From positions 1 to 64,000 of the IMG/VR virus record IMGVR_UViG_3300037455_000173: a stretch of DNA of 64,000 nucleotides. One strand, written 5' to 3'. Of this stretch, positions 28,603 through 48,411 are shown piece by piece. Origin of the DNA: a virus. Taxonomy: Duplodnaviria > Caudoviricetes. The position numbers and the translations under genes were made by a program. The notes beneath the pieces were generated by a model. That model saw nothing but the letters and a program-made list of their open reading frames with translations. It did not search any database and was not told the origin of the DNA. Within the stretch, counting starts at the first letter, position 1; each line of letters opens with the position of its first letter.

Positions 28603-29973
28603 TTAATATACCAGGTTGGTAACAACGCCACGGATGAATGCCTTCGGATTAACCATCTTCATTGCATTTGATGTTGCGAAGCCCTGCTGACCTGTGAATG
28701 TAGCATCCATAAGAGCAGCTGTTGCTGTAACAGGCATATATGTGCCGAATACATAAGAAGGCTCAACATCGTTAGAAGAAACGTGACCGAGAACATACTG
28801 GTCGTGAGGAATACCACCACGGAAGCAGTAAACCTTCTTATCACCAAGTTCGCCGGCATAGTAAGAACCAGTTGTCTTCTGAGTGTTAGCAGCTTTGAAC
28901 ATAGTCATACCCTGAATAACAGTCATAACGCTGGAACCAACGAGCATGAAGTTAGGACGAATACGACCGGTTGCGTCGTAAATTCTCTGAGAACCTGCGT
29001 TAATAGCTCTGATGAAAGAGTTATCGTGTGCAAGGTCACCAGCTTGTCCCTGACCGATAGGAGGTGTAGCGCTCCAAACAACAGGCTGACCTGCTGCTGC
29101 GTTCATCCACATATCGTGAGCAACCTTTGTGTTGAGTTCGTTTACGATAGTTGAAGTTGCCTGCTCCTCGAGCATCTTAGGACCATCAAGACCATACTGC
29201 TGTTCCATATCGTAAGCAGCTGCCTGTGACCAACGTGCTGCTAGAGTATTGTCCTCTGCAACAAGGTCGAGCCACTCAAGAGTGCTGTAGATAGGAGGTG
29301 TGTTAGCAGAAGCTGAAATGTTATCAACTCTGTAAGAAGCAAGTGTAGTAGCAGCTGCTGTTACACCTGTGATAACACCTGTTGCATAGTCGATAGTACC
29401 TGCATCAGTAATAGTTGTACCATTTAGATACTGAATCTTACCTTCGCCATCATCGAAATATGTGTTGCCAGCTTGCTCAACTATTCTAACAGTTGTAGGA
29501 ACAACAGGAGCACGGAGGAAGAGGTCTGTTAGAGGTTCATTATTCACGTCACTACCTGAATAGTTCTCTGTACCTCTTGCGAGCTCGAATGGGCTTGCAG
29601 AAACCTGTCCAGCCTTTACTGTACCCTTATCCTCACCGAAGTGGAAAAGAGTGTAAGGAATGGAAGTATGTCTGCTAGACATTGGCTGCATGGTGCAGAA
29701 CTCAGGAATGAGCCAATCAACGAGTGTTGCACGAAGAACATTCATATAAGTTGTCTTCTGGAGCACATCACCCGGCTGAGTAGCGCTTGGAATAATAGAT
29801 GTAGGAAGGAGACTCGAGTTGAGTGCTCTCTTCTGCAGTGCGTATGCGTTATTGAGTATCTTCTGAGCCTTTGAAAGCCCAATAGCGTCATACTGACTTA
29901 GTCCTTTGGCAGTACGGCTGGAGTTCAGGCTCTGAATGCCAGACTTGCCTGCGTTTGTGTACGGCTTAAGCAT
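28603..29973 (-). CDS. Major capsid protein (T4 gp23-like)
   Basis: MQPMSS, LAARWSQAAAYD…YGLD, ELN, PNFMLVGS, YMPV. Confidence 0.9.
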   Translation of the reverse strand: MLKPYTNAGKSGIQSLNSSRTAKGLSQYDAIGLSKAQKILNNAYALQKRALNSSLLPTSIIPSATQPGDVLQKTTYMNVLRATLVDWLIPEFCTMQPMSSRHTSIPYTLFHFGEDKGTVKAGQVSASPFELARGTENYSGSDVNNEPLTDLFLRAPVVPTTVRIVEQAGNTYFDDGEGKIQYLNGTTITDAGTIDYATGVITGVTAAATTLASYRVDNISASANTPPIYSTLEWLDLVAEDNTLAARWSQAAAYDMEQQYGLDGPKMLEEQATSTIVNELNTKVAHDMWMNAAAGQPVVWSATPPIGQGQAGDLAHDNSFIRAINAGSQRIYDATGRIRPNFMLVGSSVMTVIQGMTMFKAANTQKTTGSYYAGELGDKKVYCFRGGIPHDQYVLGHVSSNDVEPSYVFGTYMPVTATAALMDATFTGQQGFATSNAMKMVNPKAFIRGVVTNLVY

Positions 29974-29987
29974 AGTATCAATCTCCT

Positions 29988-30590
29988 TTAGCTAAAGTTT
30001 TTGAAATGCGAATTATATAATAACTCACACAAAGCACTCTTACGTAACATTGCCAGTTGACGGCTGGTATTAGTTAGTCTGAGATTGCTCTGTGGGAGGT
30101 TTCGCCTAGAGGCTGCAAGCTGAACCGGAACAGCGTATTTAAAAGCCGGTTGAGCAACAAAATCAAATCCAAAGAAATCTATTGGACCTGTTGTTTTGCC
30201 AGGTACTGTACCTGTGTCGGTGCATCCGTTAGCTCGGATACTTACACCTGGTTTAATACCGTGCATATAAAGGTCTTTAATGTAACGACCTTCTTCGGTA
30301 GAATCCAGAAGCTCTATCTTACCCTTTAGCTTATTACCATCTCGGTAGCACTCTATAAGGAATCCTGCCTCTGTCTTTCTAAATCCTGGTGTATTATCTG
30401 TTGGATGCTCGATGTATGCAGGGTAGACCCTACGTGCTAGACAATCCTTAAATGTTTCATCATTCAGTAGCCAATCAATAGTGGCACTTGAAAAAGTTAA
30501 TCCGTCCTGATTTGGTATATCTATATCTAGAAAATCACCACCCACGACGAACCTACCTGTGTCTTTGTTACGGGTCATTTCTGTTTCCAT
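29988..30590 (-). CDS. Prohead protease (T4 gp21-like, Ser-His)
   Basis: EHP, GKIELLDSTEEGR, GVSIRANG, FDFVAQPAF. Confidence 0.9.
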   Translation of the reverse strand: METEMTRNKDTGRFVVGGDFLDIDIPNQDGLTFSSATIDWLLNDETFKDCLARRVYPAYIEHPTDNTPGFRKTEAGFLIECYRDGNKLKGKIELLDSTEEGRYIKDLYMHGIKPGVSIRANGCTDTGTVPGKTTGPIDFFGFDFVAQPAFKYAVPVQLAASRRNLPQSNLRLTNTSRQLAMLRKSALCELLYNSHFKNFS

Positions 30591-32479: not shown

Positions 32480-35400
32480 TTATCTACCTGATTGTGTTAT
32501 TCTTTCAAGGAATTCCCAATCGTCAGGTCCACGCTCGAAAGAATTTTTATCATATGGTTGTAGGCCACCGAATAGCTTGTTGGTTAGTGATGCAGGCATT
32601 CGACTTTCTGGTTCATGCGAATACATTCTGAAATCATGGAGTACAGGTGCATAAGGCAGTAAGCTTAAATCCCATACAGCACCAGCTAGGCTATCGGAAA
32701 TATCCTTACTATTGTGAACAAATACGCCACAAGCTAATGCGAAGTTGGGATTATCTTCTATTGTAAGGTCATATACACGACTAGGTTTATCGATAAATTC
32801 TACAGAAACCACCTTATGGTTTCGATTAAAGGTTCTACCTCTTCTGTAACCCTCAGGAGGTTGCTCATAAGCCTTGATGTACAGGTTTTCTACACCATTT
32901 GTCCACCAAACTCTTCCTGAAATCGCTTCGTGTGCTTTCTGGAACTTACCTTCCTTATGCCTTTCTGATAACGATTTAGAAGTACGCTGCAAGATAGTAG
33001 GGTCTTTACGTCTTGCAAGTTTATTACCCAACGCATTTTTCTCGTCTAATGTAAGAGTATTCCAATCTATATTAAACTCTTTTTCAATCTCCTTGATGTG
33101 TTCTTGTTTACGAACTACTTCAGGCTTATAATTGTCAGTCTTGGTTGCATAATAATTATACAATGACTGTCTCGTCTTCTCAGAACGCGCTTCATAAGCA
33201 GCGGTACCTCGATTATCTTCATGCCACTGTCTGATAGTGGCTGATAATTTTTTATAGTCTTTAGTATTTAGATTATGGATTCTGGTATGCTCACTCTGGG
33301 TAACTAATTGTAGATTAGTTGGTGTATTATCATGTTTCTTAAAGTTTTTATGATGTACTACCTTACCACAACCCGGTTCCCAACCAGGACAGAACGTGTG
33401 ATATTCCAATTCCCATGTTTCGTAAGCGGGTTGGTATAGACTGTGATATTCGGTATCTTTAAATTCATGATATAATGGCATTAATGAACTACCGGTAGAT
33501 AAAGTCTGAGCTTCTACATAAGTACCGTCTCTTAGCATAAATAGATGTTCAGGAGTGCAGGTAATACTTTCACCGTTATCTAGTGTAATTCTAACTAGGT
33601 GTTTAGTTATCTTGGTCTGATGTGCTTTCAGAATGCGTTTCGGTTCAATGCGAAGAGTATCCTCATTTACAGTATATACCCAGTTAGTTCTATACTCCTG
33701 TTCACGAACTAATTCTTCCATGGTAAGTACTCGACCGTCTGTAAGTTGTACTCTAGTGTCGCCAGTGAAACAACCATTAGCTGGGTGGTCCAGCTTACCT
33801 GTATGCGTATCATGCTGAAGATATATTAATTCATTTTCTAATCTAGCGTAATGAATTAGACTTATACGTTGCTCCATCATTGCATCACGTAGAGTTTTGT
33901 AGCCTTCTGGTGTACGGTCAAGTGAACGAATAGCAGTGGTAAATCCCTTATCACGCAATATCTGATGTGATTCAGCTGTCTGGAACGTATCAGTACTGAT
34001 TATAGCAATGTGAAATCCCATACTCCTAAGCCAGTAGATAAAACGTCTGTTCTTAGCTAAGCTTATCTCAGTACCAGGTGGTGCTTTGATACCTACCGAG
34101 AATACCTGCGCATATACACGTTTTTCAATAGTACCGTCGTCTGTATCAGCTAAGACGTTATCTACATAGCACGCACCAGATATACCTGTAATATCGTTCT
34201 TTAACGAAGTATCCAGGTGAATAGCCATTGGTCGTGAGAAATACTCTTTAGGTACCTTTTCTAGGTCAAAAAATTCTTGGTATTCCATATGGTCATTGCA
34301 ACCTATTTCAAGTACCTCAGCTGAGAAGGGATTTGGTCGTTCTGTATAACAAGAGCTAATAATTTTATAGCTAAAGTAACTGGTTGTACCTGGTAATGCT
34401 TTACCAGCAAGGTCCTGTAGAGCAGTTATGATATTAAATCGGAAATCTGACTCCATTTCGACGGGAACATCAAGTATCTCATAACCGAGTACCTTCAGAG
34501 CTTCAATATCCTCGCCTTCCTCAACAACTCTAGGAGTTAGCTGTTTTGCGCCGTAAGCTACTTTGAACATTTTACCAGAATATGTATCTGATGGTTTTAC
34601 AACCCACAACGGTTCATCTACGATAAACAGTTTATCCGCGTCTTTTTCTTTTCTACGTTTATCTAGATACACCTCAAGAAAGTCATCTTCTGCCTTCTTA
34701 GACGAAACCAAGAACATCTTACCGAGGAGTTTTCCATTTCGAATAAAACGTGATTTAATTCTGGCTTTAACTGAAGAATAAGTCTGCATAATCTTAGACT
34801 TTTCCATAGTTGTATTAGAACCAGGTGCGAAGTTAACCTCATCGAGGAATCCACAGAATATTTGCTGACCTAAACCGTGACTTGCTTTAGAACCGGCTTT
34901 AATAGCAATATGCTTACTAGGTACATAATAAGGATTAGACGCTGAACCCGCAACTGTTCCATGAGCCAGGAACCAAGGCGATTCCATCAGACACGCATGA
35001 AGTCTACCGTATCCAACACTTTGAGCAAGTGCAACAGTAGCATTGAAGAAAAATATCGCAATTTCATCTGTGTCTGCAAATCCAAAATATCGCTGAGGAA
35101 ACCGTAGACAGAGTAGACGATAGGTCAGATATGCGATTGCGTAAACCGCGATGGCAGTCTTGCCAATTCCAATTGCACCTGTAAAAGCAATTTCTTCATA
35201 TTCTGTATCACCGCCTGCAAATATCTTTCTTAATTGTTCTCTCCAAAATGGGTATATCTGATTTCCTAGATTAGTGGCTTTACCTAGATATTCAGGGTCT
35301 TCTAGGAAAGTATCGATATCTACAGGTATTTCCTCATAATCCTCTAACCATACTTTTTCATAGGTTTCGCTTTCACCTGTTTCGGACAATTCTTGAAGAA

Positions 35401-35494
35401 TTTGTCTCATTACTTCCTGTTCTCTATCCGTCAATGAATTATAGATACTTTGGAATCGTTCAGGTGACAGCATAACCAGATTGGCAGCGGTCAT
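32480..35494 (-). CDS. terL: Terminase large subunit, interrupted by an intein
   Basis: Walker A GAIGIGKT, Walker B FLDE, HLDTS, STDTFQ, LDHP-[intein]-SKDISDSLAG. Confidence 0.92.
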   Translation of the reverse strand: MTAANLVMLSPERFQSIYNSLTDREQEVMRQILQELSETGESETYEKVWLEDYEEIPVDIDTFLEDPEYLGKATNLGNQIYPFWREQLRKIFAGGDTEYEEIAFTGAIGIGKTAIAVYAIAYLTYRLLCLRFPQRYFGFADTDEIAIFFFNATVALAQSVGYGRLHACLMESPWFLAHGTVAGSASNPYYVPSKHIAIKAGSKASHGLGQQIFCGFLDEVNFAPGSNTTMEKSKIMQTYSSVKARIKSRFIRNGKLLGKMFLVSSKKAEDDFLEVYLDKRRKEKDADKLFIVDEPLWVVKPSDTYSGKMFKVAYGAKQLTPRVVEEGEDIEALKVLGYEILDVPVEMESDFRFNIITALQDLAGKALPGTTSYFSYKIISSCYTERPNPFSAEVLEIGCNDHMEYQEFFDLEKVPKEYFSRPMAIHLDTSLKNDITGISGACYVDNVLADTDDGTIEKRVYAQVFSVGIKAPPGTEISLAKNRRFIYWLRSMGFHIAIISTDTFQTAESHQILRDKGFTTAIRSLDRTPEGYKTLRDAMMEQRISLIHYARLENELIYLQHDTHTGKLDHPANGCFTGDTRVQLTDGRVLTMEELVREQEYRTNWVYTVNEDTLRIEPKRILKAHQTKITKHLVRITLDNGESITCTPEHLFMLRDGTYVEAQTLSTGSSLMPLYHEFKDTEYHSLYQPAYETWELEYHTFCPGWEPGCGKVVHHKNFKKHDNTPTNLQLVTQSEHTRIHNLNTKDYKKLSATIRQWHEDNRGTAAYEARSEKTRQSLYNYYATKTDNYKPEVVRKQEHIKEIEKEFNIDWNTLTLDEKNALGNKLARRKDPTILQRTSKSLSERHKEGKFQKAHEAISGRVWWTNGVENLYIKAYEQPPEGYRRGRTFNRNHKVVSVEFIDKPSRVYDLTIEDNPNFALACGVFVHNSKDISDSLAGAVWDLSLLPYAPVLHDFRMYSHEPESRMPASLTNKLFGGLQPYDKNSFERGPDDWEFLERITQSGR
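32711..33772 (-). mobile_element. Intein (354 aa) with an HNH-type homing endonuclease
   Basis: Starts CFTGDT; block B CTPEHLF; VVHHKNFKKHDNTPTNL; ends VYDLTI…VHN, followed by Ser. Confidence 0.92.
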
Positions 35495-39685: not shown

Positions 39686-40888
39686 TCAATTATAAGTAAT
39701 GCCGGTTAAATTAGGGTACTCAGCAATGATAGCATTTCGTTGAGTTTCACCGGACACCCAGATAGTACAATCGTTAGGTATCCCTGTAAATACATCGTCT
39801 TGCTCTATTAGTGGAATGTTACCAGTACCTACCTTAGTGAAGTCTATACTGGTTACATCGATTTCTTGTAAACTGGTGCAATTCTTGAATAAACCTTCAA
39901 TATTGGTTACCTGATTAAAACAGCACGCACTTAAATCTAAAGTTTCTAATGCAGTATCTCCTGCGAACATATAGCTTATATCGGTTGCATTATGTGTATC
40001 CATTAACTGTAAACCAACAATATTCTGTAGCAGCACGTTAGCTGCTAACGCATAACTAAAGGTAGTTACATTACCAGTGTAAATATGTGTTAAATTAAGA
40101 ACCGTAGCTTGCTGTTGATAAAACATATGAACTGCGGTGGTAAAATCAGAAGCGTCAGTTTTAGTCCGTAATTCACATTCCTTGTACCATGTATCAGCTG
40201 GTACCGCTTGTACAGATGTTATGTCAGCATAGTAGGTAGTTATAGGTGTTACACCTGCTGCACTATCATAACCAACTATACAATATGGTTGGGTTAATTG
40301 TCCATTATAATTATCTTCTAATTTTAATAATCTAGGTAAGATATCACCTGTCATTATTCCGGCTTTACCTAGAGTAGCTGCTGGTATATTACTTGCTAAC
40401 GGTGTATTCTGTCCGGTGACGGGATTTACAGAAGTTAGATAAGAAGTTAGCTGCTCATAACTTGCACCATAACCTAGTCCAACGCTAAATAATCGGTTAA
40501 GCGGTATAGCTAAATCTAATTTATTAAGTAACCTATATCTGATTCTGAAATCAACTGCAGGCACACTATTAGCATATAGATATAACTTACCGTCTGCAGT
40601 TTCAACTGCCTTAATAGTTCTAAATGCAGAATATTGAGCTTGTTTATCGGCTTGTGTAGCATTATATGAATATACCAGCTGTATCACTGGTACAGTTTCT
40701 GTATTAATATCATAATAGGTAGTTTCCCAACGATACTGCGTACCAGAGATAGACCAGTCTGTTCTATTTACATTAACATATACTAAACCACTGCTTTGGT
40801 GATATGATGGATAGACATTAATAAAGTCATCTGAATTGGCAAACACTAACTCTACTGATTGAGATATCTGGCTTACTGTAAAATACAT
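39686..40888 (-). CDS. Fibre/surface protein with C-terminal BspA/DUF285-like leucine-rich repeats
   Basis: DTHNATDISYMFAGDTALETLDLS…VTNIEGLFKNCTSLQEIDV; ATG 40888 has an AGGAGG RBS. Confidence 0.75.
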   Translation of the reverse strand: MYFTVSQISQSVELVFANSDDFINVYPSYHQSSGLVYVNVNRTDWSISGTQYRWETTYYDINTETVPVIQLVYSYNATQADKQAQYSAFRTIKAVETADGKLYLYANSVPAVDFRIRYRLLNKLDLAIPLNRLFSVGLGYGASYEQLTSYLTSVNPVTGQNTPLASNIPAATLGKAGIMTGDILPRLLKLEDNYNGQLTQPYCIVGYDSAAGVTPITTYYADITSVQAVPADTWYKECELRTKTDASDFTTAVHMFYQQQATVLNLTHIYTGNVTTFSYALAANVLLQNIVGLQLMDTHNATDISYMFAGDTALETLDLSACCFNQVTNIEGLFKNCTSLQEIDVTSIDFTKVGTGNIPLIEQDDVFTGIPNDCTIWVSGETQRNAIIAEYPNLTGITYN

Positions 40889-40943
40889 ATCTATGTACCT
40901 CCTATGTAATTGCTTAAATGCAGGCAACTGCGGTGTATATACT

Positions 40944-41502: not shown

Positions 41503-41859
41503 TCAGTCACCTCCTAGGTCACGAAGACCTGAATAATGATTAAGTCTGTAGGTAAGAGAAGCAGTTAATCGTTGACATTGATACCTACGATTATTTCTTA
41601 TCTTCCTCCAGAAATATTTACCTTTAGAACCCGCATTATACAAACCCTTGGCAATATTCATGGGAACATCAAAGTAGGTATATACGGAACCGTCTTTAAA
41701 CCTAATCCAAAGTTGCTGTTTGTCTACCTTATATACCATACCGTCTATATTAGACGACTGAAAGTCGGTATACATTTTTTCCTTTTCACGCTCAGCACCA
41801 GGATGATTCTTGGTAAATGGATTAGCTTGAGAATTAATCTTGCAATTTAGTCTTAGCAC
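41503..41859 (-). CDS. KTSC-domain protein
   Basis: QSSNIDGMVY…LWIRFKDGSVYTYFDVP…LYNAGSKGKYFWRKIR. Confidence 0.9.
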   Translation of the reverse strand: MLRLNCKINSQANPFTKNHPGAEREKEKMYTDFQSSNIDGMVYKVDKQQLWIRFKDGSVYTYFDVPMNIAKGLYNAGSKGKYFWRKIRNNRRYQCQRLTASLTYRLNHYSGLRDLGGD

Positions 41860-42532
41860 CGTTACCCCTACTTCCTGTATAATCTAATGACTCTAAGTCA
41901 CCGTATTCTATTGTAGTTGCTTCCTCGAATGTTAGGTACTTCCAGACAAAATCATACGGACGAGCTACCGACGGTATTTTACCCATATTATAGATTTCAT
42001 CTTCCCAGAAATAATCGAAAGCGAATTGATTATCTGGTGCAACGTCCATCCAATGTAAACAGCACTGCCTAATTCGACGTTCTATACGCTCTTTACTGGT
42101 TGGTGTTCGAGCGCCTTGTACATCTGAAATATGGTCTTGGAAATACCAAAGAACCCACTCAGCAGCGGCTTCGAATGTCGGATATATCTGACGTAGATTA
42201 CCCCAAGGTGTATAGCGTCCTATAGGTCGATTGGTTATACGACGCATCGCTTCTTTATGAGCATCTTTATACATTTTCCAATGCTCAGTCTTATACTCCA
42301 GACGTTCTGGGATTTCAGGTTCATTACTGAAATCCCATTTAGATACGTCATAATTATATGTCAAGTCAGTAATACCAAGTATTTTCTGACGATAAACCTC
42401 ATTACGCAAACTAACGATATGTCTGCGATATTTCTGATACGGTGTAAGTTGAGCAAATCTTTCTGGATTCATCCAACGTAACTTCCACCGTATCTTATCT
42501 TTTTGAAGCGAATTACGCATCAGAGGTTGCAT
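41834..42532 (-). CDS. Basic protein with a NUMOD1-like DNA-binding module
   Basis: IGRYTPWGNLRQIYPTFEAAAEW…AFDYFW; TAATG coupling at 42532. Confidence 0.55.
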   Translation of the reverse strand: MQPLMRNSLQKDKIRWKLRWMNPERFAQLTPYQKYRRHIVSLRNEVYRQKILGITDLTYNYDVSKWDFSNEPEIPERLEYKTEHWKMYKDAHKEAMRRITNRPIGRYTPWGNLRQIYPTFEAAAEWVLWYFQDHISDVQGARTPTSKERIERRIRQCCLHWMDVAPDNQFAFDYFWEDEIYNMGKIPSVARPYDFVWKYLTFEEATTIEYGDLESLDYTGSRGNGAKTKLQD

Positions 42533-42849
42533 TAATCTTCCTCCTTGAGGTCCTTTCCAGGAATCTGCTCCATTTTCCACTCGTAGCCATATGCAGATTT
42601 AGTATCATCGCAACCATATACAGCAAATTGAATACGCTTATATATGCTTTCTTCTTTTGCTTTTGTTTTGCTGTGGTTTTTAACCCACTCAACAGCATCC
42701 CACATATTATCATATGTCTGTTTAACAACACCGTCTTCTAGACGTTGTACATGATACTCGGTTGTGCTATCAGAAATCTGCTCCTTGGTTTCTTCTGTGT
42801 GCTCGTGATTAGCAAACGAAGAATTGAGTGATTTAGTAATACGTAACAT
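42532..42849 (-). CDS. Small NUMOD3/NUMOD1-like DNA-binding protein with an N-terminal LNSS motif
   Basis: HTEETKEQISDS; QTYDNMWDAVEWV…SAYGYEWK. Confidence 0.6.
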   Translation of the reverse strand: MLRITKSLNSSFANHEHTEETKEQISDSTTEYHVQRLEDGVVKQTYDNMWDAVEWVKNHSKTKAKEESIYKRIQFAVYGCDDTKSAYGYEWKMEQIPGKDLKEED

Positions 42850-42858
42850 ATTATCACC

Positions 42859-44499
42859 TCAGTTTAGCATAGACTCATCGAAACCTAGAACGTTAATCAT
42901 TAACTTCTTAGCTTCTTCCTCGCTAACACCTAGTTCTTCCATGATAGCTTTCATCTCATGCTGTGTTTCGGTATCCCAGTTACCTGATACTGGTGTAGAT
43001 GATGAATATCTATCAGCTATCTCATAAAGTTTATCAGTATCGATAGATGAATTTAAGTCTTCACCTTCAGGGAATCTGAACTTCATATCCTGGTCGATTG
43101 CTTCTTTAGCTTCATCAACTGTCTTATATACACCTGGTAAGAAAGCACCATAAGGGCTAACGCATACATAACCTATCCTATCTGAACCGGATATAAAGTA
43201 ACCACGATATCTCATACCATCGTTCATCAAGTCAGGTGATTCAGGGTCGATGGTAGAATTATTCAAAGACACATCATCGACGATTATTGCAAAACCGCCT
43301 TCAAGTGGTTTAATTCCTGCTAGCTTAATACCCATTTCTTTTGCTAGAGGTTCTACATCAGCTGACTCCATACCGCGTACGATAATCTTGTAACCGGTTT
43401 TGCCATCTTCCATAGTCGGTACGGCACTAACCTGTTGAGCTGTTTGCTTGATTTTATCCACGAATACCTTAAGTGCAGGATTATCATGTACCGAACTATT
43501 TAGTTCAGATTTCTTGGAAGAATCCATCTTAACATTATCTTCCATATCGCAAATGGTTTCCCAGCTACAATTTGGATACTGTTCATCGAAACTATCAAGA
43601 ATAGCCTCGTATAACTCAATACCAGTTAAACCTGCCGGTACCTCGATTACAGCTGGTTCGTCTATTTCATTACCATTCTCATCTACATAGAATACCTGAT
43701 ATGCCTGATTAGCTTCAGCTATAGGTTCTTCCTCAGATAATGAACTATTAGTAGATGTAGTACTATTGAAGTTTGCAACGTCAGCTACAATCTCCTCGAT
43801 AGCACGGTCGATAACGTCTTCGTAACCATTTCCACCCTCAAAGCTAATCTGCATTGTAGTGGCGTTAGGACGTGCCAACTCCTTTACAGCTACCTCATAG
43901 CCCTTGTCGAATAACTCACCCTCGATGATATTCCGAAGGTCCATCAGCTGTGACTTTTCACGACCAAAATTCTCTGGTACGGTTACCTCACTAATCGAAC
44001 AGTTCAGATTACTGTCGATATCTGGTTCGTTACCTAGAGGATTGATTGCCATCGTATTCAGCACCTCATCAACAAGACCTAAATCTTCAAGTGCCTCTAC
44101 TACTGCAACTAGAGCCTCGTGCGTATCGATATCAGAAAGCTGCTCCCGTAGGTTAGAGCCTTCAGGAGCAGCTTCATCGTTGATTGCAGAAAGAACTTCA
44201 TCGGCTTTACCTAGGTACTCTATGCATTGAACTACATAAGTCAGAACGTCGTGTTCATCATCACCGGCGTCTGCAAGAACTTCCTTTATGTTTTCTGAAC
44301 AGTCTAGTTCATTCTTTTTTCTAGAGGAATCGAACTGAGATACATAATCATCGTAGTCACTTCCGTAGAGCAGCTTTTCTGACTCATCGATGAATTCAAC
44401 TGCATCATCAAGATTGTCGAAATCATAGTATTCACCTTCATAATTGATTAAGAAGGAGTCACCAGATTCACTCTGTTCGATAGTGTACCCATGGTACAT
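42859..44499 (-). CDS. Acidic multi-segment putative internal head protein; probably the -1 frameshift extension of 44529..45668
   Basis: No clear RBS; frame open upstream to the A8G tract; six or more LNS-like motifs. Confidence 0.7.
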   Translation of the reverse strand: MYHGYTIEQSESGDSFLINYEGEYYDFDNLDDAVEFIDESEKLLYGSDYDDYVSQFDSSRKKNELDCSENIKEVLADAGDDEHDVLTYVVQCIEYLGKADEVLSAINDEAAPEGSNLREQLSDIDTHEALVAVVEALEDLGLVDEVLNTMAINPLGNEPDIDSNLNCSISEVTVPENFGREKSQLMDLRNIIEGELFDKGYEVAVKELARPNATTMQISFEGGNGYEDVIDRAIEEIVADVANFNSTTSTNSSLSEEEPIAEANQAYQVFYVDENGNEIDEPAVIEVPAGLTGIELYEAILDSFDEQYPNCSWETICDMEDNVKMDSSKKSELNSSVHDNPALKVFVDKIKQTAQQVSAVPTMEDGKTGYKIIVRGMESADVEPLAKEMGIKLAGIKPLEGGFAIIVDDVSLNNSTIDPESPDLMNDGMRYRGYFISGSDRIGYVCVSPYGAFLPGVYKTVDEAKEAIDQDMKFRFPEGEDLNSSIDTDKLYEIADRYSSSTPVSGNWDTETQHEMKAIMEELGVSEEEAKKLMINVLGFDESMLN

Positions 44500-44528
44500 A
44501 TACAGACCGTCACCGGTCGATTCAACAT

Positions 44529-45668
44529 TTAGTTCTTTTTTTTAGATGAGTCGAGTTCTTCGTCACCCTCAGCAACTTCCTCTACCTCAGTTTCCTCTAC
44601 AGGAAGTGCAGGCTGAGTTGCTGTTGCGATTACAACGAATCCTTCAGGAATTTCCTCATCTTCATCTTCCTTAATGAAGAGTGAAATTTCGTTAGTTTCA
44701 GGATTCTGAATAATCTGAATGTCACTGAGTGAAATCTCATTACCGGACTCTGTCATGATTTTAGGCTCACTGTCTTCAGCACAGTTGAGCTCCTTGGAGC
44801 TAGCAAGGCTGCTATTAGCAGACTGAACATCCCACTCGTTGTAACTACCTGGCCAGGCCATAAAGAAGGAAGTAACTTCTGGTACATTTTGGCTAAGGTA
44901 CTGTTTGAGTGAGCGGACAAGACTTGGTAGGCAGCTATTATGAAATGCCTCCTCGCCTTCACCTGCAACTACATACTCGCCTTCTGAATCTCTAGCCTTG
45001 TCGTCAAACTCGATATTTAGGATTGTATCAGAACCACTACCAGGTTCGCCTACGCTCCAGCCCTGATTATCGACGTTTCTATCGACGCGCCAACCGGTGA
45101 TAGCTAAATCACTACCTATTTCAGAATTAGTGCTTGTAATCCAGTCTTCTACTATTTTCTTCGCGCCATCCATCTCCGGTGAAGACTCTTCATCAAATTT
45201 AGGCTTATCATTCTCGAAACCAAAATTGACACCACGGTTATCGCGTTGGTCAGCCAGTTCAACACCTAGAGAACCATCACTGTCGTAGTCATCTTCTTTA
45301 ACATACCAACCACCATTTCCGCGACACCAGAGCTGTGTAACGCCGTCTTTGGTAGCCCAGAATTCACCGTCATAGTTGTCAACTTCGTCGATAGTTGCAA
45401 GACGCTCAACTGTTGCACCAGTCCTCTCCTCGAATGCATCGATGAGCTCTTCAGCTTCTTCCTGAGTATAAATCTGCTCCTCGTTTACCAGCTGATTAAT
45501 CACCTCTTCACGACTACAGTTCAGTTTCTGCTTTCTGCGGTCTTTAATTGATTCTGGTAACTTCTTGGAGCTATTCAACGCCTTATTTCTAGGACGTCTC
45601 ATAGGTGCCTTCTCTTCTGTCTTTTCAGAAGACTTACCAGGCATGATGTTTCTGTTTACATTTACCAT
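44529..45668 (-). CDS. Acidic putative internal head/core protein
   Basis: AAGGAG RBS; ALNSS, KLNCS, ELNCA, ELDSS. Confidence 0.75.
   Translation of the reverse strand: MVNVNRNIMPGKSSEKTEEKAPMRRPRNKALNSSKKLPESIKDRRKQKLNCSREEVINQLVNEEQIYTQEEAEELIDAFEERTGATVERLATIDEVDNYDGEFWATKDGVTQLWCRGNGGWYVKEDDYDSDGSLGVELADQRDNRGVNFGFENDKPKFDEESSPEMDGAKKIVEDWITSTNSEIGSDLAITGWRVDRNVDNQGWSVGEPGSGSDTILNIEFDDKARDSEGEYVVAGEGEEAFHNSCLPSLVRSLKQYLSQNVPEVTSFFMAWPGSYNEWDVQSANSSLASSKELNCAEDSEPKIMTESGNEISLSDIQIIQNPETNEISLFIKEDEDEEIPEGFVVIATATQPALPVEETEVEEVAEGDEELDSSKKKN
44535..44543 (-). other. Slippery tract A8G (contains A_AAA_AAG), candidate -1 frameshift site
   Basis: TCT AAA AAA AAG AAC TAA; the -1 frame runs into ORF 42859..44499. 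Confidence 0.65.
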
Positions 45669-45927: not shown

Positions 45928-46362
45928 TTATTTTCCTGTTGAACCGAAACCACTCGCACCACGTTCTGTTTCTGAAAGTTCATCTACTTCCTCGAATTCT
46001 ACAGGTAAATACGGTAATACTACCAGCTGTGCGATACGGTCACCTGGTTCGATGATACGGTTCATATCGGTATCGTTATGTAGTGCCACGATATATTCAC
46101 CTCTATAATCCTCATCACATACACCAACGCAATTTGCAGGGCGTAGACCCTGTTTTGCTGCTAAACCACTTCTAGCAAATATAGCACCGAAATATCCTTC
46201 AGGTATCGCGATAGCTAAACCAGTTCCTATCTTAGTAGTAGTATGTGGCTTGATTAACACAGATTCCACACTGTCTGCATATAAATCATAACCAGCAGCT
46301 TTATCAGAGCCTCGAGTTGGTAATTTTGCTGTTTCTGTTAATTTCTTAATCTGAATTTTCAA
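45928..46362 (-). CDS. dut: dUTPase (trimeric)
   Basis: AAGYDL, ARSGLA, GVCDEDYRGE, GDRIAQL, RGASGFGSTG. Confidence 0.97.
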   Translation of the reverse strand: MKIQIKKLTETAKLPTRGSDKAAGYDLYADSVESVLIKPHTTTKIGTGLAIAIPEGYFGAIFARSGLAAKQGLRPANCVGVCDEDYRGEYIVALHNDTDMNRIIEPGDRIAQLVVLPYLPVEFEEVDELSETERGASGFGSTGK

Positions 46363-46710: not shown

Positions 46711-48411
46711 TCATAGTGTCCTATCAGAGAATATCTCACAGATTCCTGCGATAACTTCCTGGATAAACGGTATCTGAAGTTGATTATAAACTGACTCACC
46801 CTTTGCTTTACCTATCAAGTCTTGTAGTGTAGCACACGGTAACTTAGCAAAACCATACAGAGCAGCTGAATAGGTAGAACCAGGATTATTGGTCTTAAAG
46901 TAGGTTTCTATACTCTGTGCTGCAGCTTGTGCTAGATTATTAATACCTAATCCTACAAGTATCTGAGCAAAGGTCATGTTCTTCTTAGATTCTTCTACTC
47001 TTTGTAGGTACGTATTCATCTTAGCTTTACCGCTACCAGGTAGAGTCATAATCTCGATAGGTTTTATCTTATAAAAGTCAGCAGGTACTCTGAGCTTACC
47101 ACGCTCATATAGAGCTTCTACCAGACTTCCCGCAACACCCTTAAAATTACCTATTTTCTTGTCAGTCCAACCATTCAATCTAGCGAGTAACTTCTCTCTA
47201 CACTGAATATTACTACAAATACCTAGTTCTGCATCCTCGGTAAGTGGTTCACCACAAGCCGGACATACCGTAGGCTTTTCGAACGGTATAGAGTCTTCTG
47301 TATGGCGAGTGGATTTTATAGCCGGTATGATATCGCCTGCTTTATACACTACTACCATATCGTTCTTTTGAACTCCTAGCTGTTTAATTCTTTCCCAGTT
47401 ATGCAGAGTTGCTTTGGAAATGGTACTACCCATTACAAGGACCGGTTCGAGTATAGCAACTGGGTTTAACCTACCTGTCGAACCTACCTGCCATTCTATA
47501 TCCTTCAGACGTGTTTCTTGTTCTTGTGCTGGGAATTTATAAGCAACTGCCCAGTTCGGTACTACACCATTGTCACCGACTGTGCTACGTCTATCGATGT
47601 TGTTGAACTTTACAACCATACCGTCAATCGGTATATCGAGTTCCTCACGAGAGTCTGAAATAGCCTTGAGGATATCTTCTAGGTTATCCCATTTATCTAA
47701 GACAACGTGATACACTACCGGAAAATTGTTGTCCATCAAGAAGCCCAAATCCTGCATTTGGGTGCGGCCTTCGACAGACTGTTGCATTTTATCGATGTTA
47801 TACGCAGAGAACGAAAGGTACGCTGCCCTTTCTAATTCATTCTGACGTTTAAATATACCTACAGCAGTATTTCGGGGATTAGCTTGTTTTCCATACTTCT
47901 TACAGTATTCCTCGAAACGAGATTTCTTCATGAATACCTCTCCATGTACAATGAGTTCCCAAGAAATGGGTATGGTCTTAGGAATATCAGCTATGTACTG
48001 AGCTGCCGCTATACACTCTACACCTATGTGACCGTCACCACGAGTAGACGCAGACACAAGCTTGCCGTCTCGATATATTAATTGTACCGATAAACCATCA
48101 AGTTTATGCTCTAAGCTAAATAAGGTTATTGCCTTGAACTTATCCATAAACGCTTGTGTATCGGTAATCGTGAATACATCTTTAAGGCTTAGCATAGGTA
48201 CGGGGTGAACCACATCACCACCATCACTGGGGTTTACCGAGCGAGTCGGGCTGTTTGTCGCAGCTCTGTTCCATTTCTCATATTCGTATATGTCGTTCAT
48301 ATACGAATCGTAGAGCTCGTCTGAAATGCCTGTATTAGCGCCTTGCATATACAAGGGTCTAGCCGCATTTACTACCTCGATTAATTCATGATATCGGTCT
48401 TTTGTAATCAT
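46711..48411 (-). CDS. ligA: NAD-dependent DNA ligase (no BRCT domain evident)
   Basis: ISDELYD, HPVPMLSL, KLDGLS, TRGDG, NPRN, IDGMVVK, AVAYKF, ATLHN, AGDIIP, CPAC…C…C. Confidence 0.95.
   Translation of the reverse strand: MITKDRYHELIEVVNAARPLYMQGANTGISDELYDSYMNDIYEYEKWNRAATNSPTRSVNPSDGGDVVHPVPMLSLKDVFTITDTQAFMDKFKAITLFSLEHKLDGLSVQLIYRDGKLVSASTRGDGHIGVECIAAAQYIADIPKTIPISWELIVHGEVFMKKSRFEEYCKKYGKQANPRNTAVGIFKRQNELERAAYLSFSAYNIDKMQQSVEGRTQMQDLGFLMDNNFPVVYHVVLDKWDNLEDILKAISDSREELDIPIDGMVVKFNNIDRRSTVGDNGVVPNWAVAYKFPAQEQETRLKDIEWQVGSTGRLNPVAILEPVLVMGSTISKATLHNWERIKQLGVQKNDMVVVYKAGDIIPAIKSTRHTEDSIPFEKPTVCPACGEPLTEDAELGICSNIQCREKLLARLNGWTDKKIGNFKGVAGSLVEALYERGKLRVPADFYKIKPIEIMTLPGSGKAKMNTYLQRVEESKKNMTFAQILVGLGINNLAQAAAQSIETYFKTNNPGSTYSAALYGFAKLPCATLQDLIGKAKGESVYNQLQIPFIQEVIAGICEIFSDRTL

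Follow-up and report, generated by a model that had tools for sequence, protein, structure and literature searches.

Introduction

The slippery heptamer A_AAA_AAG is known from two kinds of gene in which one reading frame can pass into another. In the IS1 and IS3 insertion sequences (IS), the short zero-frame product, OrfA, ends just past this site, and slippage into the -1 frame gives the long OrfAB fusion; some IS elements use transcriptional slippage instead (PMC5009743). In dnaX, the same slippery sequence gives two products that share an N-terminus: tau and gamma arise in Escherichia coli by -1 programmed ribosomal frameshifting (PRF) on A_AAA_AAG, and Thermus thermophilus relies on transcriptional slippage at an A9 run, which gives a truncated product via nearby stops in the alternative frames (PMC5009743). 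Here we analyze a tract of eight adenines followed by a guanine (A8G) in a phage of the class Caudoviricetes (IMG/VR record IMGVR_UViG_3300037455_000173). The genome is a single 166,592-bp contig, and its first 64 kb is the stretch that was analyzed, hereafter the window. On the minus strand of the window the tract closes one open reading frame (ORF), ORF-A, and lies just upstream of another, ORF-B.

Several other systems are relevant to this locus. Stimulation of -1 shifting of the dnaX type involves a Shine-Dalgarno (SD)-like element located 10-14 nt upstream of the site. In the tail assembly chaperone pair G/GT, a conserved programmed -1 frameshift in a phage late gene fixes the ratio of a short to a long form (PMC5009743). 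Citrobacter rodentium tssM1 is broken right after an A11 run, and slippage restores the full-length product, giving two length variants (PMC4256274). In the contingency loci T2 agt and T4 rIIA, an A-run within a phage ORF changes its length reversibly by +/-1 (bioRxiv 10.1101/2025.10.21.683753).

In this study, we compared the tract and the two ORFs with their relatives in other phage assemblies. An earlier account of the window, made from its letters without database searches (the sequence-only reading), had proposed that a -1 frameshift joins the two ORFs. The proposal gains support from the nucleotide-level conservation of the tract, from its uniqueness in the genome, and from nine -1 junction types with the same layout. 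We consider it likely from these comparisons that the A8G tract is a selectively maintained programmed -1 recoding site, acting at the RNA or ribosome level, that yields a short form of 379 amino acids (aa) and a long form of 936 aa.

Results

Two reading frames meet at a single A-run

On the minus strand, ORF-A ends in GAC TCA TCT AAA AAA AAG AAC TAA, with A_AAA_AAG in the phase of the zero frame. The -1 frame is open from 44541, where it reads KK-ELNVESTGDGLY-MYHGY..., and continues for 558 codons after the run, through ORF-B; together with 378 residues of ORF-A these give the 936 aa of the fusion. Overlap of the two frames is confined to 44541..44532, so the A-run is the sole place for a change of frame. 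Because a TAA closes the -1 frame at 44542..44544 and the zero-frame stop lies on the other side, any shift must fall between 44543 and 44532. The zero-frame TAA itself arises from the Leu-Asn codons (CTA AAT) of a linker motif encoded in the -1 frame.

The ATG assigned to ORF-B lies 30 nt past the zero-frame stop and has a weak SD match (GGTGA). Its SD duplex energy is -6.0 kcal/mol, compared with a genome median of -9.15, and it ranks 125 of 176; the usual SD sites in the genes of this phage are of the GGAGGTG type. The linkers between ORF-B modules include FDSSRKKNELDCS, DSNLNCS, NSSLSEEE, MDSSKKSELNSS and EDLNSS.

These results bear out what the sequence-only reading had described at the junction. 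The ORF-A ending and the in-phase heptamer could be read directly from the minus strand, the -1 frame proved stop-free into ORF-B, and the ORF-B start indeed has no clear ribosome-binding site. The internal linkers that it had quoted as matches to the fused junction (MDSSKKSELNSS, FDSSRKKNELDCS and LASSKELNCA) occur in the translations.

The tract is the only long homopolymer in the genome

Across all 166,592 bp and both strands, the A8 tract is the sole homopolymer of at least 7 nt, compared with about 29 A/T runs expected under a first-order Markov model. It is thus more than a chance feature. In about 166 kb of loci from relatives, the only A/T run of at least 7 nt (or G/C run of at least 6 nt) is the same tract. 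We also compared five related genomes that are complete or near-complete (147-163 kb). G003 (locus L024) and G005 (locus L025) have no A/T run of at least 7 nt besides the tract, which in G005 lies within the terminal repeat; G001 (locus L017) has one other and G004 (locus L018) three others. G002 (locus L020) has none, the tract there reading AGA AAA AAG.

Lys codon choice elsewhere in the genome differs from that at the tract: genome-wide, AAG exceeds AAA among Lys codons (1567 and 1218), AAA-AAA-AAG occurs in one of 11 Lys triplets, namely at the tract, and the other DSS-K/R-K linkers of these proteins use mixed Lys codons. The tract is kept even in relatives whose neighboring conserved module shares only 47-49% identity with that of the window. 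Its length in relatives is mostly A8-A10, with an A6 exception in L013/L020.

Some further features of homopolymers were observed in these genomes. The whole genome has no G or C runs of at least 6 nt, and runs of 5-6 nt fall well under both the independent and identically distributed (iid) and the Markov expectation; related genomes are purged of homopolymers likewise. Polymerase fidelity, modification of the DNA or selection against slippage may account for this depletion. Of the three extra runs in G004, two are non-coding A8 runs (L057, G004:C1:109400-112800, at about 110444 and 111731). One is inside a tRNA-like element, where it is followed by a GGTTCGATTCC T-arm, and the other lies between genes, directly ahead of an AGGAGG ribosome site.

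Relatives recurrently show the -1 layout

To gather related loci, we looked up exact protein matches and scanned for patterns built around the conserved TESGNE/IPEGF module, which immediately precedes the tract. They contain 17 distinct junction sequences. Seven are in frame: L001; L005/L017/L041; L011 (A10); L012; L013/L020 (A6); the L014 group; and L026/L027. Nine need a -1 shift: the window; L002; L003/L004/L018/L030; L009; L010; L050/L051; L052; L053/L054; and L055/L056. A single type, L006/L007/L008 (A9), needs a +1 shift, so that out-of-frame states stand at 9:1 for -1 over +1. Neither the seven in-frame junction types nor the roughly 24 fused protein clusters included an A7 form or an in-frame A9 'KKKEL' form.

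All -1 types have a zero-frame stop 0-5 codons past the tract, and in all of them the -1 frame opens with the linker motif of the family (ELNV, ELTLNS, ELNTD, ELNCK, GELNC, EFNDELNC, DSLNC, MHELNC or INELNC) and runs for 87-558 codons. The heptamer is in phase in every A8G relative, and seven of the nine types, the window and six others, keep exactly A8G while the sequence past the tract differs. Several -1 junctions are identical across 2-4 independent samples. The arrangement of A8G followed by AAC, a stop and a -1 ORF was met repeatedly, in many assemblies and samples independent of one another, among them L002 (5 contigs), L052 and L053/L054. When proteins were clustered at 90% identity, about 24 clusters were fused across the linker and 14 ended no more than 5 residues after KKK, seven of the latter in ...SSKKKN like the window. 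In L050/L051 (two samples), the C-terminal region of ORF-A is 98% identical to that of the window; the junction is different and the first ORF-B module of the window is missing, and the junction is still -1.

In L001, the closest relative of ORF-B (95% identical) makes up the C-terminal portion of one uninterrupted 792-aa ORF, whose junction reads TCT AAA AAA AAG, then AAT GAA CTG AAC in frame. Because ORF-B matches part of this single ORF, the two ORFs of the window are parts of one member of a gene family. The in-frame A8 relatives have stops within 1-3 codons in both alternative frames, so slippage there would yield a short form ending at the same linker.

The sequence-only reading had pointed to relatives as a check on the tract and its frame offset. 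The tract is kept almost universally, whereas the frame relation varies, with nine -1, seven in-frame and one +1 types. It had also named a single ORF with an A9 run in relatives as the outcome that would speak against a frameshift. A similar number of relatives are indeed in frame with the same A8G, yet none is an A9 version of the window.

Evidence for the downstream frame as a coding continuation

Between the tract and the ATG annotated for ORF-B lie 12 codons whose protein sequence is kept in the in-frame locus L026 (protein P0030), as KKKNPKVESVGNGLYMYHGY. The peptide that appears intergenic in the window is encoded in frame by P0030 as VESVGNGLYMYHGY, and the homologous in-frame peptide PKVESVGNGLY-MYHGY is found in P0030/L026 and in L027. 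The start Met of ORF-B falls inside a small module that is repeated in the protein (MYHGY, MRYRGY). In other -1 lineages, the first ATG is 10-50 codons downstream, inside a conserved module that any start would truncate; the downstream ORFs of -1 relatives have no conserved start, and gene callers begin them at an internal Met, at Val or at a GTG.

Substitution patterns are consistent with selection on this frame. Comparison of the downstream ORF between L003 and L018 gave 9 synonymous and 7 non-synonymous changes, with a ratio of non-synonymous to synonymous rates (dN/dS) of 0.20, and comparison of L003 with L010 gave 25 and 15 changes and a dN/dS of 0.15. By these values, the downstream ORF is under purifying selection between lineages that share the broken state. 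Among deep -1 lineages, synonymous sites are saturated (proportion of synonymous differences, pS, 0.73-0.87), the corresponding non-synonymous proportion (pN) is 0.13-0.39 for homologous modules, and no further stops have been gained.

Proposed mechanism and the evidence against it

In the reading that we favor, ORF-A and ORF-B would be one gene for a 'beads-on-a-string' modular polyprotein. Most ribosomes would stop one sense codon past the tract and release the short form, and a fraction would enter the -1 frame within the four available codons and complete the long form. This could occur by tandem slippage of tRNA-Lys on A_AAA_AAG or by translation of mRNAs that carry one extra A as a result of RNA-polymerase slippage. 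We lean slightly toward ribosomal over transcriptional slippage, and both may contribute. The junction of the long form, DSSKKK-ELNV, would restore the normal linker of the family. Proheads would then take up the polyprotein, the prohead protease would separate it into its modules, and the frequency of slippage would determine how much of the C-terminal modules is supplied.

Several observations weigh against this proposal. No significant or conserved RNA structure was detected downstream or upstream of the tract: downstream, where a stimulatory hairpin or pseudoknot would stand 5-9 nt from the tract, the z-scores of folds range from -1.4 to +0.6 for most lineages, with no fold that is conserved or has the required spacing. 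The window also has no SD-like element 10-14 nt upstream, the nearest, GAGGGTGA, being about 21 nt upstream. With neither a structure nor a well-spaced SD, a classical high-efficiency -1 PRF cassette is not demonstrated. An A8 run is at the low end for efficient slippage by RNA polymerase, for which about 9 nt or more is usual and 8 is marginal; a review likewise treats A8 as short for efficient transcriptional slippage (PMC5009743). About half of the relatives need no frameshift, and the L006-L008 lineage (A9, three samples) needs +1 rather than -1, a state that fits RNA-polymerase slippage or simple mutation and does not fit -1 ribosomal slippage. L010 (A9, broken) and L011 (A10, in frame) differ by 2 substitutions in a 1074-nt downstream ORF, and the C-terminus KKKRMS of P0050 implies an A10 sister of the A9 lineage. 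By these comparisons, the tract also changes length at the DNA level, so some of the variation is mutational. Finally, the exact junction of the window was found in no second assembly.

A small GGCGAG/CUCGUC hairpin that abuts the tract in some relatives was considered as a stimulator and set aside, since it is not significant and has no counterpart in the window. A phage tRNA-Lys that could tune slippage was likewise not found; the only tRNAs in the genome are tRNA-Glu, tRNA-Gln and tRNA-Leu.

Alternative explanations

The length changes just described raise the alternative of a DNA-level contingency locus, in which a hypermutable A-tract would toggle the C-terminal modules ON and OFF by slippage during replication and the window would have been caught in the OFF state, with no recoding. 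The sequence-only reading had allowed for such a phase-variable tract, and part of this idea stands: near-identical relatives do differ, as A9 versus A10 in L010 and L011, a change seen in relatives only. The A9 run of L006-L008 and the A10 run deduced for P0050 add to it, in-frame and out-of-frame states are both common, and A-runs of T2 agt and T4 rIIA provide phage precedents (bioRxiv 10.1101/2025.10.21.683753). However, most -1 types are not one-step variants, because seven of the nine keep A8G and so do not differ by a single length step from any observed in-frame form. The in-frame A9 KKKEL form and any A7 form are missing from the census, there is an excess of -1 over +1, and deep -1 lineages keep long, constrained downstream ORFs. 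We regard this explanation as unlikely. The recurrent -1 layout also argues against an assembly artefact or recent accident, that is, a homopolymer miscall, a fresh frameshift or a 4-nt deletion in this assembly. The occurrence of the exact junction in one contig only is compatible with such an origin, and AAGAACTAAAT could derive from AAGAATGAACTAAAT by a 4-nt loss between GAA repeats. Yet the recurrence of the layout in independent samples, the -1 state of the 98%-identical ORF-A relative L050/L051, and the correct reporting of A9 and A10 runs by assemblers elsewhere leave it little room, and we consider it very improbable. The comparative data thus favor a maintained recoding site over the one-base homopolymer error that the sequence-only reading had offered. 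We also attempted to derive the junction of the window from the in-frame junction of L026; the alignment was ambiguous, and loss of one A from A9 could not be separated from a 4-nt deletion.

It may also be that ORF-A and ORF-B are two separate genes, with ORF-B translated alone from the ATG at 44499 or by termination-reinitiation, and the split falling at a linker that would be cleaved anyway. The short distance from the stop and the GGTGA upstream would allow this, and in L003, L004 and L018 the ATG sits directly against the tract and shares bases with the stop upstream, as coupled genes normally do. Against it, the SD is weak where the genes of this phage normally have strong ones, the pre-ATG codons are kept as protein in L026, the Met is internal to a module, and starts in other -1 lineages, which come only after 10-50 codons, would truncate a conserved module. 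Two genes would also leave the conserved, unique homopolymer unexplained. We consider this arrangement quite unlikely, somewhat more so than a contingency locus.

Nature of the protein and a shared linker motif

Neither ORF-A nor ORF-B fell into a family in Pfam or PHROG scans. The region and both proteins had no megablast or tblastn match in 50,697 records of cultured phages, an IMG/VR scan with ORF-B alone had none, and Foldseek comparison of both AlphaFold models with the PDB gave no match at E <= 0.001. IMG/VR pattern scans for GACTC[G/A]TCTAAAAAAAA returned only known family members and unrelated phages, with no new junction types. The AlphaFold models of both ORFs are strings of small domains with low-confidence segments at the linkers (in ORF-B, predicted local distance difference test (pLDDT) scores below 50). 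ORF-A begins with a conserved N-terminus of the pattern MVNVN...RRPRN.LNSS.

The ORFs of the genome contain 18 copies of the motif L-[N/D]-[S/C]-S, compared with 2.7 expected and a shuffle maximum of 8. Of these copies, 15 fall within 19970-45668 on the minus strand. ORF-A and ORF-B together hold seven, the capsid protein holds two (residues 16 and 51), and the remaining six are spread over five further ORFs, one of which is the gene after ORF-B. Alignments with capsid proteins of Firmicutes myophages begin only at residue 51-64, as expected if the capsid N-terminus is a cleaved propeptide, and the gene for the head maturation protease adjoins the capsid gene. The L-N-[S/C]-S linkers are common to the capsid N-terminus and several small late proteins, and packaging and protease cleavage of the polyprotein are therefore probable. 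Most likely, the product of the gene is a chain of modules that the prohead protease separates at the linkers, as with T4 internal proteins or the ejection proteins of SPN3US (PMC10052503). The 'head cargo' label given to these ORFs in the sequence-only reading we infer from the LNSS motif. Prohead protease motifs in T4 and phiKZ are Glu-based.

The polyprotein appears as a cassette system in which modules between LNSS/LNCS linkers are gained, lost and swapped, with fused forms of about 580 to 880 aa in relatives. For example, the first ORF-B module of the window (YHGYTIEQ...) is present in L026 and absent from L001 and L050. In these comparisons, the linkers look like recombination points. 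The product of the gene after ORF-B (42532-42849) begins MIRITKSLNSSF, which suggests a short propeptide carrying the same motif.

Gene order around the locus

The features of the locus are listed in Table 1. On the minus strand the genes are ordered as follows: DNA ligase, dUTPase, ORF-A, ORF-B, small ORFs, a 1004-aa ORF, portal, protease and major capsid protein. The KTSC-domain and DUF285/LRR proteins are downstream neighbors kept with the polyprotein across the family. The 1004-aa ORF contains an intein splicing domain and an HNH endonuclease (Pfam PF14890, PF13392), and is probably an intein-containing large terminase. Some relatives have an IS605 OrfB/Cas12f-like TnpB gene between the dUTPase and polyprotein genes (L026 1024-2265; L055 1-1085).

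Table 1. Positions of the tract, the two ORFs and nearby genes in the window
Feature	Position	Strand	Remarks
NAD-dependent DNA ligase gene	46711..48411	minus	
dUTPase gene	45928..46362	minus	
Whole recoded gene	42859..45668	minus	predicted long product, 936 aa
ORF-A	44529..45668	minus	zero-frame short product, 379 aa; conserved N-terminus, variable modules, TESGNE/IPEGF module, linker DSSKKKN and stop
-1-frame TAA (T of TCT + AA)	44542..44544	minus	closes the -1 frame just 5' of the tract
Slippery tract A8+G (AAA AAA AAG)	44535..44543	minus	A8 run 44543..44536; G 44535
Heptamer A_AAA_AAG	44541..44535	minus	zero-frame phase correct
Zero-frame stop TAA	44529..44531	minus	one sense codon (AAC) past the tract
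-1-frame stretch ELNVESTGDGLY	44500..44535	minus	between tract and annotated ATG; coding, not intergenic
ORF-B	42859..44499	minus	546 aa; C-terminal polyprotein modules
KTSC-domain protein	41503-41859	minus	
DUF285/LRR protein	39686-40927	minus	
1004-aa ORF with intein and HNH domain	32480..35494	minus	upstream of portal gene
Candidate prohead (head maturation) protease	29988..30590	minus	phrog_207, E = 3.7e-9
Major capsid protein	28603..29973	minus	two LNSS motifs (residues 16 and 51) N-terminal to the conserved part of the capsid protein

Discussion

If the recoding site proposed here is real, phage recoding would include a new class of site in addition to those of tail chaperones and capsid extensions, and the site would control the amount of a variable, multi-module cargo that is made and presumably packaged. 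It would also mean that gene callers systematically split the gene into two ORFs, the second often being assigned, in relatives, a start at a Met within a conserved module. A discovery rule is suggested by the same reasoning: a lone conserved homopolymer in an otherwise purged genome may mark a functional slippage site.

The occurrence of in-frame and out-of-frame relatives with the same tract leads to a more tentative proposal, which we consider possible and hold with less confidence than the recoding site itself. One tract could act as an evolvable switch that works in two directions to set the dosage of a cargo polyprotein delivered by the capsid; occasional length changes in the DNA or recombination at linkers would flip its polarity. 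Phages with the gene in frame would slip to the short form, and out-of-frame phages, such as that of the window, would slip to the long form; as the genome is otherwise purged of long homopolymers, slippage would be confined to the tract. The presence of both polarities in one family would then offer a natural experiment on the evolution of recoding sites and on the interplay of RNA-level slippage with DNA-level phase variation.

The known systems differ from this locus in several ways. With IS1/IS3 OrfAB, the window shares the heptamer and the polarity. Here, however, a phage structural or cargo polyprotein takes the place of the transposase, the search for a stimulatory hairpin or pseudoknot was negative, and the same tract is in frame in some relatives. 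The likeness to Thermus dnaX lies in the in-frame relatives, with their stops within 1-3 codons in both alternative frames. Compared with dnaX, the polarity in the window is reversed, the zero frame giving the short form; the SD and stem-loop stimulators of dnaX were not found here, and the proteins are unrelated. In tssM1 the gene is likewise broken right after an A-run, but the run is shorter here, A8 instead of A11, and the mechanism at this locus is a proposal from sequence.

As at the T2 agt and T4 rIIA loci, near-identical relatives are polymorphic in the length of the tract. The T-even phages, however, have well over a hundred runs of at least 6 nt, whereas here a single run of at least 7 nt keeps its position and mostly its length and has a strong -1 bias. 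G/GT resembles the locus in having a -1 frameshift in a phage gene with short and long forms, but the gene, location and protein differ, and the frame relation that is conserved in G/GT alternates here between relatives. T4 internal proteins and the gp245-type substrates of SPN3US and phiKZ (PMC10052503) likewise share a motif with the capsid N-terminus and other head-region proteins, with the protease gene near that of the capsid. In this phage, the motif is L-N-[S/C]-S, and the substrates, as predicted from sequence, are strung in one multi-module polyprotein. Overall, the slippery sequence and its logic are known from IS OrfAB and dnaX, and what is new is the gene context, the two polarities in one family and the lone long homopolymer.

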